Below, piece by piece: positions 3,242-19,991 of a stretch of DNA of 64,000 nt. The stretch lies in assembly GCF_056712565.1 (NCBI RefSeq), contig NZ_CM160072.1; one strand, written 5' to 3'. The notes below the pieces were generated by a model. It did not search any database. It was not told the origin of the DNA and saw nothing but the letters and a program-made list of their open reading frames with translations. A program made the translations under genes and the position numbers. Position 1 is the first letter of the stretch; every line of letters starts with the position of its first letter.

Positions 3242-4849
3242 TCAATGTGCCTTGATATACAACTCTTTGCTGTAGACATAATCCTGGGGATTATGCAGCG
3301 GAAAACCGCCAACGTAGGGTTTAAGCAGTTTGATTAACGGCTGATAGTAGATGGGAATCAGCGGTGCCTGCTGGTTGATGATCACTTCTGCCTGCTGATA
3401 CAACGCATTACGCTTTGTCGCATCAGTGATCTGCGTGGCCTGGTTTAGTAAGGCGTCATACTGCGCATTTTTCCAGTGACCGACGTTTTCTTCACTATCG
3501 CTTTTGAGCGTGTTCAGGAAGCTGGAGGCATCATTGTACGTCGCATCCCACGACTGCCGAGACAGCATAAAATCACCGGCTCGTCGGGCATCAAGATAGG
3601 TTTTCCACTCCATTGTGCGCAGCGTCACCTGTGCACCCAGCCATTTTTTCCATTCGGAAGACAACGCTATCGCGGTCTTTTCATGCAGATCGTACTTGTT
3701 GTAGAACAGCTCAAAGCGTAGCGGATGAGAGGCGTCGTATCCCGCCTGTTTCAGCAAGACTTTTGCCATCGCGACGCGCTCACTCATTGGCTTTTGCAGT
3801 TCATCGAACGTCGTCGCGCTAAAGCCTTTTACCTCTGGCGGCGTCAGCGTGGTTGCGGGCGTTCTCAACCCCAGTACCTTTTGCGCAATAAGCTGTCGAT
3901 CAACCGTAAGATATAGCGCCCGACGCACCCGCACATCGTTAAATGGCGGTTTCTCAAGGTTAAAGTTGTAATATTCGCTGTTCAGACGCGGGATAATTCG
4001 TAGCTCGCCAGGCTGTGATTTTTCAATGGCGGGAATTTGCTGCGCCGGAACCCAGGTGAGATCGACCTCTCCCGCGCGATAGCGGTTATAGCCGGTGACC
4101 GAATTATCCAGCGCCAGATACTCAACCTGTTGCAATACTGTATGTTGCGCATCGCGGTACTTTGGATTTTTGCGTGCAGTAATCTTTTCGTTAACTACCC
4201 ATTTATCAAGCACAAAGGCACCGTTGTAAACCATGTTCTCTGGCTTACTCCAGCTATCGCCATGTTTAGCGATGACATGATGAGGAACCGGGAACAGCGT
4301 CGGCCAGGCGAGCATCGTCGTGAACCAAGGAACTGGCTGCTCAAGCGTAACTTCAAGAGTACGATCATCCGTCGCTTTGACACCCAGCGATGTAACATCT
4401 GCTTTACCCGCAACAATAGCCGCGGCATTGTTAATGTGCGCCTGTGCCAGATAGCCAGCAAAAGGGCTTGCCGTTTTCGGGTCAACCGCGCGCTGCCAGC
4501 CGAGGACAAAATCCTCTGCCGTCAGAGGCTGACCGTCTGACCACTGCAAACCGCTACGCAGATGGAAAATATAGCGCTTGCCGTCGTCAAGTATCTCCCA
4601 GCGTTCAGCCTGAGCGGGCTGCACCTGGCCTTCACCGTCCATCCATACCAGACCTTCAAACAGATCCAGCACAATCTGCGCGGCAGTATTCTCCTCTACC
4701 TTTTGCGGGTCGAGCGTGCCTGGGTCGCTATGATTGTTGTAACGAAAGACTTGTTGCGGGGCGAGCGGTGTGTTGGCGGGAACGTCAGCAGCGTAGAGAG
4801 GAGCCGCACTTACCAGGCTGACCAGCCATAATAAATTTCGCGTATACAT
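3242..4849 (-). CDS. ygiS: periplasmic solute-binding protein (family 5 SBP; YgiS)
   Basis: ORF 3242-4912; start placed at internal Met MYTRNLLWLVSLVSAAPLYA (signal peptide), giving 535 aa. Confidence 0.85.
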   Translation of the reverse strand: MYTRNLLWLVSLVSAAPLYAADVPANTPLAPQQVFRYNNHSDPGTLDPQKVEENTAAQIVLDLFEGLVWMDGEGQVQPAQAERWEILDDGKRYIFHLRSGLQWSDGQPLTAEDFVLGWQRAVDPKTASPFAGYLAQAHINNAAAIVAGKADVTSLGVKATDDRTLEVTLEQPVPWFTTMLAWPTLFPVPHHVIAKHGDSWSKPENMVYNGAFVLDKWVVNEKITARKNPKYRDAQHTVLQQVEYLALDNSVTGYNRYRAGEVDLTWVPAQQIPAIEKSQPGELRIIPRLNSEYYNFNLEKPPFNDVRVRRALYLTVDRQLIAQKVLGLRTPATTLTPPEVKGFSATTFDELQKPMSERVAMAKVLLKQAGYDASHPLRFELFYNKYDLHEKTAIALSSEWKKWLGAQVTLRTMEWKTYLDARRAGDFMLSRQSWDATYNDASSFLNTLKSDSEENVGHWKNAQYDALLNQATQITDATKRNALYQQAEVIINQQAPLIPIYYQPLIKLLKPYVGGFPLHNPQDYVYSKELYIKAH

Positions 4850-4957
4850 GGTATTCCTTACCGGAGAAATTATAAGCCCGACAACAATACGCCTGTGGCA
4901 TTGTTTGCTCAAACTTATCGCGAGTGATTTGGCTCACACTCCGGTAAAGATTCCCCA

Positions 4958-5440
4958 TCACGCCAACGGCACATAAATATCCGTTTCCAGTCGCCGCTCT
5001 GTCATCCCTTCGGCAAGATTGGTGTAGTGAAACAGGATCGGGGCTTTGCGCATTTTTTCGCCGCTTGCAGGTAGCCAGTGGCGAATGATGCCCCATATCG
5101 TGTGTGAAATATCGTCCAGCTCGCCAACATGGCGGGCAACAGCATAACGCCCACCGGTAAGTTCGCCATTACTCACGCCATAACGATTATCGGGGATCGG
5201 TTCGCTAACGCTGCCGCAGATATCAAAGCGAAACGCTTCCGGTGCGGTGGTGGCAGGGTCGTCCCAGGCGACGCCAAAAGTCTGGCTTTGGTTAACAGGA
5301 GAAAGCCCCGTCTCTTTACGCCACATGATAAATTTCGCCACGCTATAGTTGAGCAACTCAGGGCTACAGCGGTGCGGCAACATCGCCACAGGGATTGATG
5401 GGAAATCGATAATATTTACATCCAGTGTCAGGTTTGTCAT
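4958..5440 (-). CDS. ygiV: GyrI-like small-molecule-binding domain protein / transcriptional regulator YgiV
   Basis: 160-aa ORF in the expected position between ygiS and ygiW. Confidence 0.8.
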   Translation of the reverse strand: MTNLTLDVNIIDFPSIPVAMLPHRCSPELLNYSVAKFIMWRKETGLSPVNQSQTFGVAWDDPATTAPEAFRFDICGSVSEPIPDNRYGVSNGELTGGRYAVARHVGELDDISHTIWGIIRHWLPASGEKMRKAPILFHYTNLAEGMTERRLETDIYVPLA

Positions 5441-6696: not shown

Positions 6697-8042
6697 AATT
6701 TACCCAACGTCTTAGTCTGCGAGTCAGGCTGACGCTAATCTTTTTAATTCTGGCCTCGGTGACCTGGCTGCTTTCCAGCTTTGTCGCCTGGAAACAAACA
6801 ACGGATAACGTCGATGAGTTGTTCGACACCCAACTGATGCTGTTTGCCAAACGGTTAAGTACGCTCGATCTCAACGAAATCAACGCGGCGGATCGCATGG
6901 CACAGACGCCAAATAAATTAAAACACGGTCATGTTGATGACGATGCGCTGACTTTTGCCATCTTTACCCACGACGGCAGAATGGTCCTTAACGATGGCGA
7001 TAACGGAGAAGATATTCCCTATAGCTATCAGCGGGAAGGTTTTGCTGACGGGCAACTGGTCGGTGAAGACGATCCCTGGCGTTTTGTCTGGATGACCTCA
7101 CCTGATGGCAAATATCGCATCGTTGTGGGTCAGGAATGGGAATACCGTGAAGACATGGCGCTGGCGATTGTTGCCGGACAATTGATCCCGTGGCTGGTCG
7201 CACTGCCGATTATGTTAATCATCATGATGGTACTACTGGGTCGTGAACTCGCGCCGCTGAACAAATTGGCGCTGGCACTACGTATGCGTGACCCAGACTC
7301 GGAAAAACCACTAAACGCGACGGGCGTACCCAGCGAAGTGCGCCCACTGGTTGAGTCGCTAAATCAACTGTTCGCCCGCACACATGCGATGATGGTTCGT
7401 GAACGACGCTTTACCTCCGACGCAGCTCACGAACTTCGTAGCCCGTTAACGGCGCTGAAAGTGCAAACCGAAGTTGCTCAGCTCTCTGACGATGATCCGC
7501 AGGCGCGGAAAAAAGCGCTGCTCCAATTACATTCCGGGATCGATCGCGCTACTCGTCTGGTTGATCAACTGCTCACGCTATCGCGGCTGGACTCACTGGA
7601 TAACCTTCAGGACGTCGCGGAGATCCCGCTTGAAGATCTCCTGCAATCGTCGGTGATGGATATTTACCACACGGCGCAGCAGGCGAACATTGACGTGCGA
7701 CTGACACTCAATGCCAACGGCATCAAACGCACCGGACAACCGCTATTGCTAAGTTTGTTGGTGCGAAATTTGCTGGATAACGCCGTGCGTTACAGTCCAC
7801 AAGGTAGCGTGGTAGACGTCACGCTGAATGCCGATAATTTCATCGTGAGGGATAACGGCCCCGGTGTGACGCCAGAGGCACTGGCGCGAATTGGCGAACG
7901 CTTCTATCGCCCACCCGGACAAACCGCTACCGGCAGTGGACTTGGGCTATCGATTGTCCAGCGAATCGCCAAGCTGCATGACATGAATGTTGAATTTGGG
8001 AATGCGGAACAAGGTGGATTTGAGGCGAAGGTAAGCTGGTAA
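6693..8042 (+). CDS. qseC: sensor histidine kinase QseC
   Basis: 449-aa ORF with two TM segments, H-box (AAHELRSPL) and ATPase motifs. Confidence 0.92.
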
Positions 8043-8049
8043 CTTCTCT

Positions 8050-8083
8050 GTCTATGAGAGCCGTTAAAACGACTCTCATAGAC
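8050..8083. terminator. bidirectional hairpin between convergent qseC and ygiZ
   Basis: Perfect 11-bp inverted repeat gtctatgagag ... ctctcatagac with 12-nt loop. Confidence 0.55.
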
Positions 8084-8087
8084 TTTA

Positions 8088-8420
8088 CTAATAGCAAAAT
8101 ATAAACCGTCCCCAAAAAAGCCACCAACCACAACCCAGACAAATAACGAGCGAGAATACATATAGCCAAAACTCGAACATTTCCCGCATAAAGAGTTTTC
8201 TTAAGATAAGAATAATAAGTGGTGTCAGAAGAAAAAATGCTGCAATCATTGCTTGCAATATACGATCTTCGCCTGAAACAGAAGGTATACTGCAAATATT
8301 GTCTCCCGACTCAAGCATCCAGTCATACTTATTGAAAGCAAAAAAAGAATCTATTAACCAATAAGTAAGCATTATATATAATAGTGCTTCAAATATTGAT
8401 AGTAGTTGTTTTTTTAACAT
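8088..8420 (-). CDS. ygiZ: small inner-membrane protein (about 3 TM helices); YgiZ-like; possible immunity protein of adjacent effector
   Basis: 110-aa ORF, hydrophobic segments, AT-rich; immediately downstream of the effector-like gene (6-bp gap). Confidence 0.6.
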   Translation of the reverse strand: MLKKQLLSIFEALLYIMLTYWLIDSFFAFNKYDWMLESGDNICSIPSVSGEDRILQAMIAAFFLLTPLIILILRKLFMREMFEFWLYVFSLVICLGCGWWLFWGRFIFCY

Positions 8421-8426
8421 ATCTGA

Positions 8427-9137
8427 TTACTCATTAATCAATTTTTTGATATGTTCTCTAATCTCTAACAACCTCATACCATAAGAGATGAATTTATAAT
8501 CATCTGTATCACGCGCAGGCAAATTATTAATTAAACAAATAAAAAAACCCAAATCTCGTTCAACACCACGATTATATCTAATACCAGCCATAATATACTG
8601 CTCATTCGTCATATACAGTGTTGCCGAAGAGGGATAATCAAAAAGAACAAGATCTCTTAAATAAGTAGCAGCAATTTGAAAGGTAAAATCATCCTCCATT
8701 AGGCATGTCGCTAACTCTAACTGATTTCTGGTAGTTAATTCTGAAGGGTCTAGACCTAGAGTAATCGCTGCGGTTCGTATTTGTATACCCATTGAGCCAA
8801 ATGATGTTTTATTTTCAGGCATATCTAACAATCCGATCATTCTTTTTGTTTCATATATCTGAAACTTATAATTTTCAGGCATACCTCCTGACTCAATCCA
8901 GGCCACGCCGCCCAGTAACTCTGGACGAATTCCAGCGGCGTATGCATGTTTAATTATTTTGTCTCTATTATATTGTACATATGCATCTTTATAAGCATTT
9001 AAATAATATACTCCTGAACGGCGACGCGAATCATTTTTTCCTAACTTCCAGAGTAAAACGTCCATTTCATCCCATTTACGGAACTTCGCTTGTGGAATTG
9101 TACAATATCTATTTTTTATAGTGAGATCGCTTTTCAT
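8427..9137 (-). CDS. hypothetical protein with lytic transglycosylase/lysozyme-like (SLT/GH23-type) motifs; candidate Hcp-associated T6SS effector
   Basis: ORF 8427-9164; start placed at ATG 9135-9137 (MKSDLTIKNRY...), 2 bp after hcp stop, with AAGGA RBS inside hcp 3' end. Motifs GGVAWIESGG, FGSMGIQ and AGIRYNRG in SLT-like order; no N-terminal signal peptide. Confidence 0.55.
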   Translation of the reverse strand: MKSDLTIKNRYCTIPQAKFRKWDEMDVLLWKLGKNDSRRRSGVYYLNAYKDAYVQYNRDKIIKHAYAAGIRPELLGGVAWIESGGMPENYKFQIYETKRMIGLLDMPENKTSFGSMGIQIRTAAITLGLDPSELTTRNQLELATCLMEDDFTFQIAATYLRDLVLFDYPSSATLYMTNEQYIMAGIRYNRGVERDLGFFICLINNLPARDTDDYKFISYGMRLLEIREHIKKLINE

Positions 9138-9139
9138 AT

Positions 9140-9619
9140 TTAAAAAATCCTTTCTTCCCAACAACTATATGATTCCGTACTCGCGATATGGTGCTTCCAT
9201 GTTATATTTTTATAATTAAGAACAATGACATCTTCCGGCTGATTACCCGCATGTGTAATTGAGTGTGGATAACATGTCAGAATATTCGATAAATGTGCTC
9301 CTTGCAATTCAATTGTGTAAAACCTTTCAATACAACCGCCAGAATTAATTCTATAAAAATTAAATACAGCTGATAACTCTTCATTTTCAGAAAGAGCGGC
9401 ATTTAATAAAGGGGAGGATTTATCTATTGGCTTGTAAAATTTTATGGGGTGATGCACTACATTATACTCTCGACTTAAAGAATGGTCGAACTGTAAAACA
9501 AAAATTTCATCCACATGATTTATTTGATATTTATTACCAATAGATGCATACGAACCACAACCCTCAGAGATCAAACCTTGTATTTTCCCTTTAATTGATA
9601 AGTATATCATATTTGACAT
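9140..9619 (-). CDS. hcp: Hcp family type VI secretion system tube protein (orphan hcp)
   Basis: 159-aa ORF MSNMIYLSIKGKIQG...; typical Hcp length and conserved blocks (N-terminal YL.IKG, central FYKPIDKSSPLL, C-terminal ITWKH) recognised from memory of Hcp1-family proteins. Confidence 0.75.
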   Translation of the reverse strand: MSNMIYLSIKGKIQGLISEGCGSYASIGNKYQINHVDEIFVLQFDHSLSREYNVVHHPIKFYKPIDKSSPLLNAALSENEELSAVFNFYRINSGGCIERFYTIELQGAHLSNILTCYPHSITHAGNQPEDVIVLNYKNITWKHHIASTESYSCWEERIF

Positions 9620-9868
9620 ATATATTCTCCATAATCATTTTTTCCGAAAAACTCCTGTATCATTTGCATAATACATCTCTCCTGTGGGAGCTTATGGGAA
9701 GTTGATTTAAGTATTGTCATTTTCAGAAAATATTTATCCCGCATCGGTGAATCAGAGAAAGATCAGACTTTTGCTAAATTCGCAAAAGACTTTGCACATT
9801 TTGCTAATTTCACCGTACCGCTCTGTGACGTACTATAGTCGGCAAACGTCTCACCTTGAGGTTAAAAA

Positions 9869-18095: not shown

Positions 18096-19991
<1,896 letters not shown>

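Follow-up and report, generated by a model that had tools for sequence, protein, structure and literature searches.

In a 64,000-nucleotide stretch of Escherichia coli chromosome (the window, to which all positions refer unless another locus is named), a gene for a 236-residue protein, hereafter the toxin, lies on the minus strand between hcp and ygiZ. This gene probably encodes an antibacterial type VI secretion system (T6SS) cargo effector that belongs to a previously undescribed family of GH23 enzymes (goose-lysozyme/SLT/Tse3-like), its function being predicted. The first-pass annotation, made from the letters alone, had proposed a peptidoglycan-degrading toxin delivered by a T6SS, and our analysis supports this reading, with both enzyme activity and delivery as predictions. 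In the mechanism we propose, the 27-kDa toxin, made without a signal peptide, would be loaded into the dedicated Hcp of its own cassette and fired by the strain's T6SS into the periplasm of a neighbour. There, Glu82 as the single acid/base would cleave the N-acetylmuramic acid (MurNAc)-beta-1,4-N-acetylglucosamine (GlcNAc) bonds of peptidoglycan and weaken the wall, while YgiZ would shield the producer and its kin by binding or blocking the toxin at the inner-membrane surface.

The quoted protein is the exact minus-strand translation of positions 8427-9137, and the three motifs that had been likened by eye to those of SLT enzymes are present: GGVAWIESGG at residues 76-85 (with GAG at 8892-8894 as the Glu82 codon), FGSMGIQI at residues 113-120, 31 residues past Glu82, and MAGIRYNRG at residues 183-191. 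The last had been described as close to the C-terminus; it lies 45 residues from it and not at the very end. In an alignment of 109 distant relatives (23-74% identity to the query), the three motifs stood out as the core that a whole family conserves, and their resemblance is not accidental. Invariant in all 109 sequences are E82, G85, S112 and G191, with K50, T111, G114, Q119, R187, Y188, N189, Y219 and G220 conserved to at least 93%. Within the counterpart of SLT motif II (S...G-L-M-Q), S112 reaches 100%, G114 and Q119 99% each and T111 94%; within that of motif III (A-Y-N-x-G), the values are 93% for R187 and Y188, 94% for N189 and 100% for G191. Both motifs are thus present, albeit in degenerate form. 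As to the "E-S" of motif I, the Glu holds in every relative, whereas residue 83 may be S, T, V or A. E82 is also the sole invariant acidic residue, the runner-up being D167 (85% Asp), and a single invariant carboxylate would fit a lytic-transglycosylase mechanism. The product may be 1,6-anhydro, as made by lytic transglycosylases, or reducing, as made by muramidases such as Tse3; the sequence does not discriminate between the two, and the nearest relative, Tse3, has been described as a muramidase.

Upstream of the catalytic core, the toxin domain begins with a conserved W...D...W element (W22, 88% conserved; D26, 81% acidic). Homology in fused relatives likewise starts near W22...W30, and a PAAR-fused relative (P0040) aligned from query residue 17. 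The N-terminus is hydrophilic, as had been noted: charged residues (K, D, K, R, K, R, K, D, E and D) occur within the first 26 positions, where no stretch is hydrophobic. Because this charged N-terminus lacks a hydrophobic core, the toxin appears on inspection to carry neither a Sec nor a lipoprotein signal. Besides, Cys12 (9102-9104) and Cys145 (8703-8705), each conserved to 90% or more within the closer subfamily though not across the wider family, may pair as a disulfide once in the periplasm of the target.

Simple searches with the toxin alone were uninformative. No NCBIfam model and no PADLOC entry matched, phmmer against PDB sequences returned only noise (LHCI, CpoB), and all close homologues (54-74% identity) come from Enterobacterales and are labelled "hypothetical", as is the toxin itself in the RefSeq entry for Nissle 1917. 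When 1.84 billion representatives were searched exhaustively with phmmer, 298 relatives came up at E<=1e-3, many of which carry the domain at the C-terminus of a longer protein. With the 109-sequence alignment, AlphaFold2 gave a model with a predicted local distance difference test score (pLDDT) of 93.8 and a predicted template modelling score of 0.90, superseding a poor model (pLDDT 65.7) obtained with 25 close homologues only. The predicted structure is an all-alpha, lysozyme-like fold that can be superposed on solved GH23 enzymes, as the initial proposal would have it. Its nearest structural relative is Tse3 (14% identity), followed by Slt (score 11.7), MltE (11.5), MltC (10.8), MltF (10.6), Slt70 (10.4), g-type lysozyme (9.6), phiKZ gp144 (9.2) and Tge2 (7.1). 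Foldseek agreed on the lysozyme-like fold, with modest E-values of about 1e-2.

Two further and independent lines of evidence, both of them profile comparisons, point the same way. The best PDB match of the family hidden Markov model was again Tse3, a weak hit (E 0.03, 16.5 bits), with MltE next; it aligns E82 with the Glu of the Tse3 segment "ILAEQRD", which we take to be the catalytic Glu250, and TSFG with TSIG. In a profile-profile comparison with hhalign, an alignment of five E. coli SLT domains (MltE, Slt70, MltC, MltD and MltF) matched the family with 89% probability (P 2.7e-7). This required the multi-sequence SLT alignment, as MltE alone yielded 19% probability only. The match places E82 on MltE Glu64 and RYNRG on the AYNxG consensus (SYANG in MltE itself). 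The Pfam SLT model, in turn, recognised one of 66 long relatives at E<=1e-3 (4.6e-5) and eight at E<=0.1, as well as one of 36 short, essentially domain-only relatives (8e-3), and several relatives are automatically named "Transglycosylase SLT domain-containing" in UniProt. Judged by its modelled fold and active-site alignment, the toxin belongs to the GH23 lysozyme-like superfamily. It is not a Pfam SLT member by score, nor a Tge1 member by immunity type or, apparently, by sequence. Of note, toxin residues 9-196 (8550-9113) match phrog_11932, a phage protein family of unknown function (E 4e-28); a phage link was dropped after tblastn against 50,697 GenBank phage records found nothing.

The domain also behaves as the exchangeable part of a polymorphic toxin. 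A Pfam scan of the 66 long relatives found it fused to eCIS_core (DUF4157) in nine, to PAAR in three to four, to an OmpA-like domain in four, to PG_binding_1 in one to three, and to RHS, WXG100 and Phage_Mu_F in one each; the AlphaFold database covers the same span of fusions. A C-terminal domain joined to such varied delivery modules is characteristic of a polymorphic-toxin warhead, and murein is suggested as the substrate by the fusions to peptidoglycan-binding domains. In one distant relative, the fusion partner is an SPP1 portal-like protein. Ntox3 was considered for the long relatives, and discarded: the matches were weak (best E 2e-3), confined to three of the 66 and not reproduced in the 36 short domain-only proteins. 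Two metagenome proteins were left unused, each being a single sequence and perhaps an assembly chimera: P0002 joins the first ~100 Hcp residues in frame to the toxin, and P0004 joins a signal-peptide-like N-terminus to toxin residues 44-236.

A further strand of evidence is the neighbouring gene. In ten of the 11 loci examined, a YgiZ/DUF2645-like gene (~100-120 aa, three helices) lies directly downstream of the toxin. In E. coli, Pectobacterium, Serratia and a relative of 44% identity, the next gene encodes 109-112 aa, and its product bears the name DUF2645 in three genera. Downstream of a PAAR-fused relative (38% identity, L008) a DUF2645 protein of 100 aa is encoded, and those downstream of relatives of 34-35% identity have 105 and 120 aa. 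Look-alikes of 106 and 111 aa without a Pfam match follow a further relative of 38% identity (P0053) and a WXG100-fused one (L014), respectively. Downstream of a second PAAR toxin there are two tandem, uncalled open reading frames (ORFs) of the YgiZ type (L011, 4268-4967), and one locus holds an extra, truncated DUF2645 copy upstream of the toxin (DUF2645-type genes of L019/L020 at 1574-1831 and 3711-4028). Such extra DUF2645-type genes are immunity-gene arrays as seen at other toxin loci. The one locus of the 11 without a YgiZ look-alike is that of an eCIS-core/OmpA fusion (L013), and an Rhs fusion (L012) is followed by an ORF of 748 aa reaching as far as the end of the contig. The same C-terminal domain on different delivery modules, together with a conserved neighbouring immunity-type gene, is the hallmark of polymorphic toxin/immunity systems.

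YgiZ-type proteins share a common plan of three hydrophobic helices. Right behind the first comes a Y-(D/E)-W-(M/F) motif and then a loop with a Cys, the second and third are joined by a basic turn, and another Cys lies at the extreme C-terminus. Loop motif and loop Cys are kept in seven to eight of nine aligned immunity-type proteins, the C-terminal Cys in seven of nine. By the positive-inside rule, we infer a periplasmic position for both the loop and the C-terminal Cys, which would make a disulfide possible and would put a recognition surface on the side where a wall-degrading enzyme would arrive after injection. When the proteins of four triads are compared with those of E. coli, the immunity protein shows the lowest identity (26-39%), followed by the toxin (41-62%) and Hcp (55-59%). 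This order of divergence fits an immunity role, because immunity proteins often diverge faster than toxins. YgiZ is therefore best described as the predicted cognate immunity protein. The literature that we searched mentions ygiZ in two contexts only: its promoter in K-12 was reported to be activated by BglJ-RcsB in an H-NS context (PMC3950696), and the gene was mentioned in a study on sabinene tolerance (PMC7181518). No paper in our search ties ygiZ or DUF2645 to a T6SS.

On the other hand, several points weigh against a GH23 cargo effector with YgiZ as its antidote. The toxin alone finds no match in Pfam even at E<=10, PF01464 (SLT) included. Ser83 falls below the 75% conservation cut-off and is variable even in close relatives, and the loop between Glu82 and motif II is ~20 residues longer than in SLT domains. 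Known T6SS effectors of the glycoside-hydrolase class are, to our knowledge, countered by lipoproteins or by soluble proteins of the periplasm, and a polytopic membrane immunity protein is more usual for membrane-targeting toxins. There is no close DNA paralogue of the cassette hcp in the same genomes, and our literature search returned no enzymatic, secretion, toxicity or immunity experiment on the toxin or YgiZ. Lastly, the T6SS is inactivated in some carriers, for instance in clade C of sequence type (ST) 131 (PMC10711316).

The nature of YgiZ underlies the most serious rival explanation, according to which the GH23-fold toxin acts at the inner-membrane surface, on lipid II or on nascent, uncross-linked strands linked to undecaprenyl pyrophosphate, instead of on the mature sacculus, and is neutralised there by the three-helix protein. 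Such immunity proteins are predicted to be integral to the membrane and to expose only a ~25-residue loop and a short tail, and the pairing is kept across the toxin family, PAAR- and WXG100-fused forms included. Moreover, the closest structural relative of the toxin, Tse3, reportedly uses a calcium-dependent membrane-binding mechanism. However, relatives fused to the sacculus-binding OmpA-like and PG_binding_1 domains suit mature peptidoglycan, the close structural neighbours all act on polymeric glycan and the toxin sequence is without any sign of lipid binding; we consider a membrane-surface substrate unlikely.

The genomic setting favours a T6SS cargo. The window island is 100% identical to that of the E. 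coli strains Nissle 1917, ATCC 25922, NU14 and APEC O18 and reads parC, ygiS, ygiV, ygiW, qseB and qseC, then ygiZ, toxin gene and hcp (all minus), followed by mdaB and ygiN. The hcp product, "Hcp family type VI secretion system effector" in RefSeq, matches TIGR03344 with E 2e-58 and 197 bits (cut-off 58.9) and is the presumed carrier of the toxin. Two nucleotides separate the Hcp stop codon from the toxin ATG at 9137, which is preceded by an AAGGA Shine-Dalgarno-like sequence, and seven nucleotides separate the toxin stop from the ygiZ start. The stand-alone form of the toxin gene lies directly 3' of a gene for a 159-aa Hcp in E. coli, Pectobacterium, Serratia and the relative of 44% identity, and the complete hcp-toxin-ygiZ triad recurs on the Pectobacterium chromosome, on conjugative plasmids of Serratia and in that same relative. 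A place next to hcp, no signal peptide, a length of 236 aa (small enough for Hcp export) and an immunity-type gene next door are the features of Hcp-associated T6SS cargo. With a GC content of 30-37% in the hcp-toxin-ygiZ block (8000-9800) as compared to ~50% in the flanks, a pattern typical of horizontally acquired, H-NS-silenced DNA, the cassette is mobile and AT-rich. Between qseC and mdaB, K-12 holds ygiZ alone (L023, ygiZ at 3380-3712). The mdaB-proximal ~170 bp of the region between mdaB and hcp are also present in K-12-type strains, and a consensus promoter scan of that region (9620-9868) yielded nothing convincing.

Among 5426 complete E. coli genomes, the toxin is found in 1261 (23%), at 95-100% identity, and the cassette hcp in 1263, essentially the same set. 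ygiZ is present in 4598 (~85%), including ~3300 genomes without the toxin, K-12 among them. Because of this surplus over the toxin, ygiZ is apparently an orphan immunity gene in most strains, K-12 included. In ygiZ-only strains, homology to the B2 allele sets in 22 nt inside ygiZ, and the 5' flank is a different one; the K-12 protein is 92% identical to the B2 protein and carries D40G in the conserved loop motif. Nissle 1917, a carrier of the cassette, is presumably ST73. The B2 lineages ST73 and ST95 consistently carry a complete tss region (PMC10711316).

The same data could describe an inactive or decaying remnant, that is, an acquired and H-NS-silenced cassette no longer expressed or delivered in E. 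coli. Its low GC content, the missing clear promoter in the consensus scan, the loss of the toxin with retention of ygiZ alone in most E. coli and the broken T6SS of some carrier lineages would all agree with this. Yet silent decay is improbable, because the toxin ORF is intact in 1260 genomes (95-100% identity), with the catalytic motif residues all preserved; in addition, Hcp and toxin co-occur nearly 1:1, and the start and stop codons are tightly coupled in an operon-like manner.

Even less probable is that the protein is no toxin at all and serves T6SS assembly by opening the wall of the producer itself, as a "specialised" lytic transglycosylase for which MltE in the T6SS of enteroaggregative E. 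coli and EtgA in a type III secretion system provide the models. Lacking a signal peptide and a lipobox, the protein cannot reach its own periplasm by Sec. Its gene adjoins an orphan hcp and not a tss cluster, is paired with a fast-evolving small membrane protein and is missing from 77% of E. coli genomes, and the same domain sits at the C-terminus of PAAR, Rhs, WXG100, eCIS-core and MuF polymorphic toxins. The absent export signal, the attached immunity-type gene and the toxin fusions thus make self-remodelling of the wall unlikely. The idea that the GH23-type glycosidase attacks a non-peptidoglycan polymer such as the chitin of fungi or hosts can be given hardly any weight, as a bacterial membrane immunity-type gene is attached in ten of 11 loci, the fusions involve peptidoglycan-binding domains and the better structural matches are all murein enzymes.

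If an antibacterial T6SS effector with YgiZ as its immunity protein is the correct reading, it would assign a function to a hypothetical protein of Nissle 1917, ATCC 25922 and extraintestinal pathogenic E. coli (ExPEC), and to ygiZ (DUF2645), a y-gene of K-12. It would further reveal a widespread toxin domain outside Pfam and NCBIfam that is used by type VI and type VII secretion systems, extracellular contractile injection systems (eCIS) and phage MuF systems, and enlarge the set of glycoside-hydrolase effectors by a family whose immunity protein is, unusually, integral to the membrane. Neither the toxin family nor an immunity role of YgiZ is described in the literature that we searched, and the family had been hinted at solely by the automatic "SLT domain-containing" naming of some relatives. 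The 92%-identical ygiZ of K-12 may mask toxicity or killing in standard assays, and the uneven distribution of toxin and immunity genes may bear on strain competition and probiotic colonisation. A bolder version, which we regard as doubtful, would see here a new mode of cell-wall toxin, namely a GH23 enzyme that acts on lipid-linked or nascent glycan at the cytoplasmic membrane's outer face and is blocked there by a tiny polytopic YgiZ, with ygiZ as a species-wide orphan immunity gene that decides survival of T6SS attack by B2 strains (Nissle 1917, ExPEC) in the gut.

Table. Positions of the cassette genes and of their conserved elements in the window (CDS, coding sequence)
Feature	Position	Strand	Basis
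hcp (tssD), 159 aa, T6SS tube protein	9140-9619	minus	NCBIfam TIGR03344, RefSeq name
Toxin gene, 236 aa, 711-nt CDS, predicted GH23/lysozyme-like fold	8427-9137	minus	translation and model
W22...D26...W30, conserved start of the toxin domain	9048-9074	minus	conservation and alignment of fused relatives
Glu82 codon, predicted catalytic acid/base	8892-8894	minus	invariant; ends helix 72-82 in the model
T111-S112-F-G114-S-M-G-I-Q119, counterpart of SLT motif II (S...G-L-M-Q)	8781-8807	minus	conservation
R187-Y188-N189-R190-G191, counterpart of SLT motif III (A-Y-N-x-G)	8565-8579	minus	conservation and alignment
ygiZ (DUF2645), 110 aa, three predicted membrane helices, predicted cognate immunity protein	8088-8420	minus	
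YgiZ residues 28-53 (NKYDWMLESGDNICSIPSVSGEDRIL), predicted periplasmic loop	8262-8339	minus	family motif Y-D/E-W-M and conserved Cys
mdaB-hcp intergenic region, presumed site of the cassette promoter	9620-9868	.	alignment

Two further observations concern the surroundings of the cassette. ygiS and ygiV are adjacent in the window (4912-4958), where K-12 has mqsR beside ygiV; as the K-12 map presumably places the mqsR-mqsA toxin-antitoxin pair between ygiS and ygiV, the window strain appears to be without mqsRA at this site. Besides, the segment 10840-18032, between ygiN and a 630-aa minus-strand ORF at 18096-19988 (probably parE), holds genes that are absent there in strain D72, in which parE directly follows ygiN. 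They are the gene for a regulator of the RpiR family, those for the binding protein, the two permeases and the ATPase of an iron-siderophore ABC transporter, and a 713-aa TonB-dependent receptor-like ORF.

Among known systems, the toxin would work most like the Tge-class effectors. Tsi3, the immunity protein of Tse3, is soluble and periplasmic, whereas the immunity neighbour of the toxin is the three-helix membrane protein YgiZ/DUF2645. The comparison is with Tse3/Tge1 of Pseudomonas aeruginosa, a T6SS peptidoglycan muramidase (PDB 4luq, 3wa5 and 4m5e); the two are apparently not of the same family, given an identity of no more than 14% and a profile E-value of 0.03. Tse3 is also longer (~400 as compared to 236 aa) and has an extra N-terminal domain, and its gene lies away from hcp while that of the toxin directly follows it. 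As compared to the Family 1 lytic transglycosylases (PF01464, GH23: MltE/EmtA, Slt70, MltC and MltF), the Ser after the catalytic Glu is variable in the toxin, which adds to the canonical SLT domain an N-terminal W...D...W module, the longer loop (~20 residues) between Glu and motif II, and a C-terminal S-Y-G helix pair. Unlike the housekeeping enzymes, it has no signal peptide or lipobox but comes with a predicted immunity gene and polymorphic-toxin fusions.

Three other systems proved to be distinct: Hcp2B of avian pathogenic E. coli belongs to a separate locus with the XmtU/XmtV pair and not to the toxin cassette, PseM of P. aeruginosa has a homodimeric active site, pairs with PA0990 and is outside the toxin family, and so is T6EC3, a SleB homologue (Geller et al. 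2024). With the Hcp-linked pairs Tae4-Tai4 and Tlde1-Tldi1 (Salmonella), by contrast, the cassette shares the order of hcp, small signal-less effector and immunity gene as well as the predicted cell-wall target, yet the toxin has a glycosidase fold instead of an amidase or L,D-transpeptidase one, and its predicted immunity protein is a polytopic membrane protein and not a periplasmic one. Finally, although no existing Pfam toxin model covers it, the domain resembles the C-terminal domains of polymorphic toxins (Zhang, Aravind et al. 2012; eCIS DUF4157, MuF) in being an exchangeable warhead with an adjacent immunity gene.
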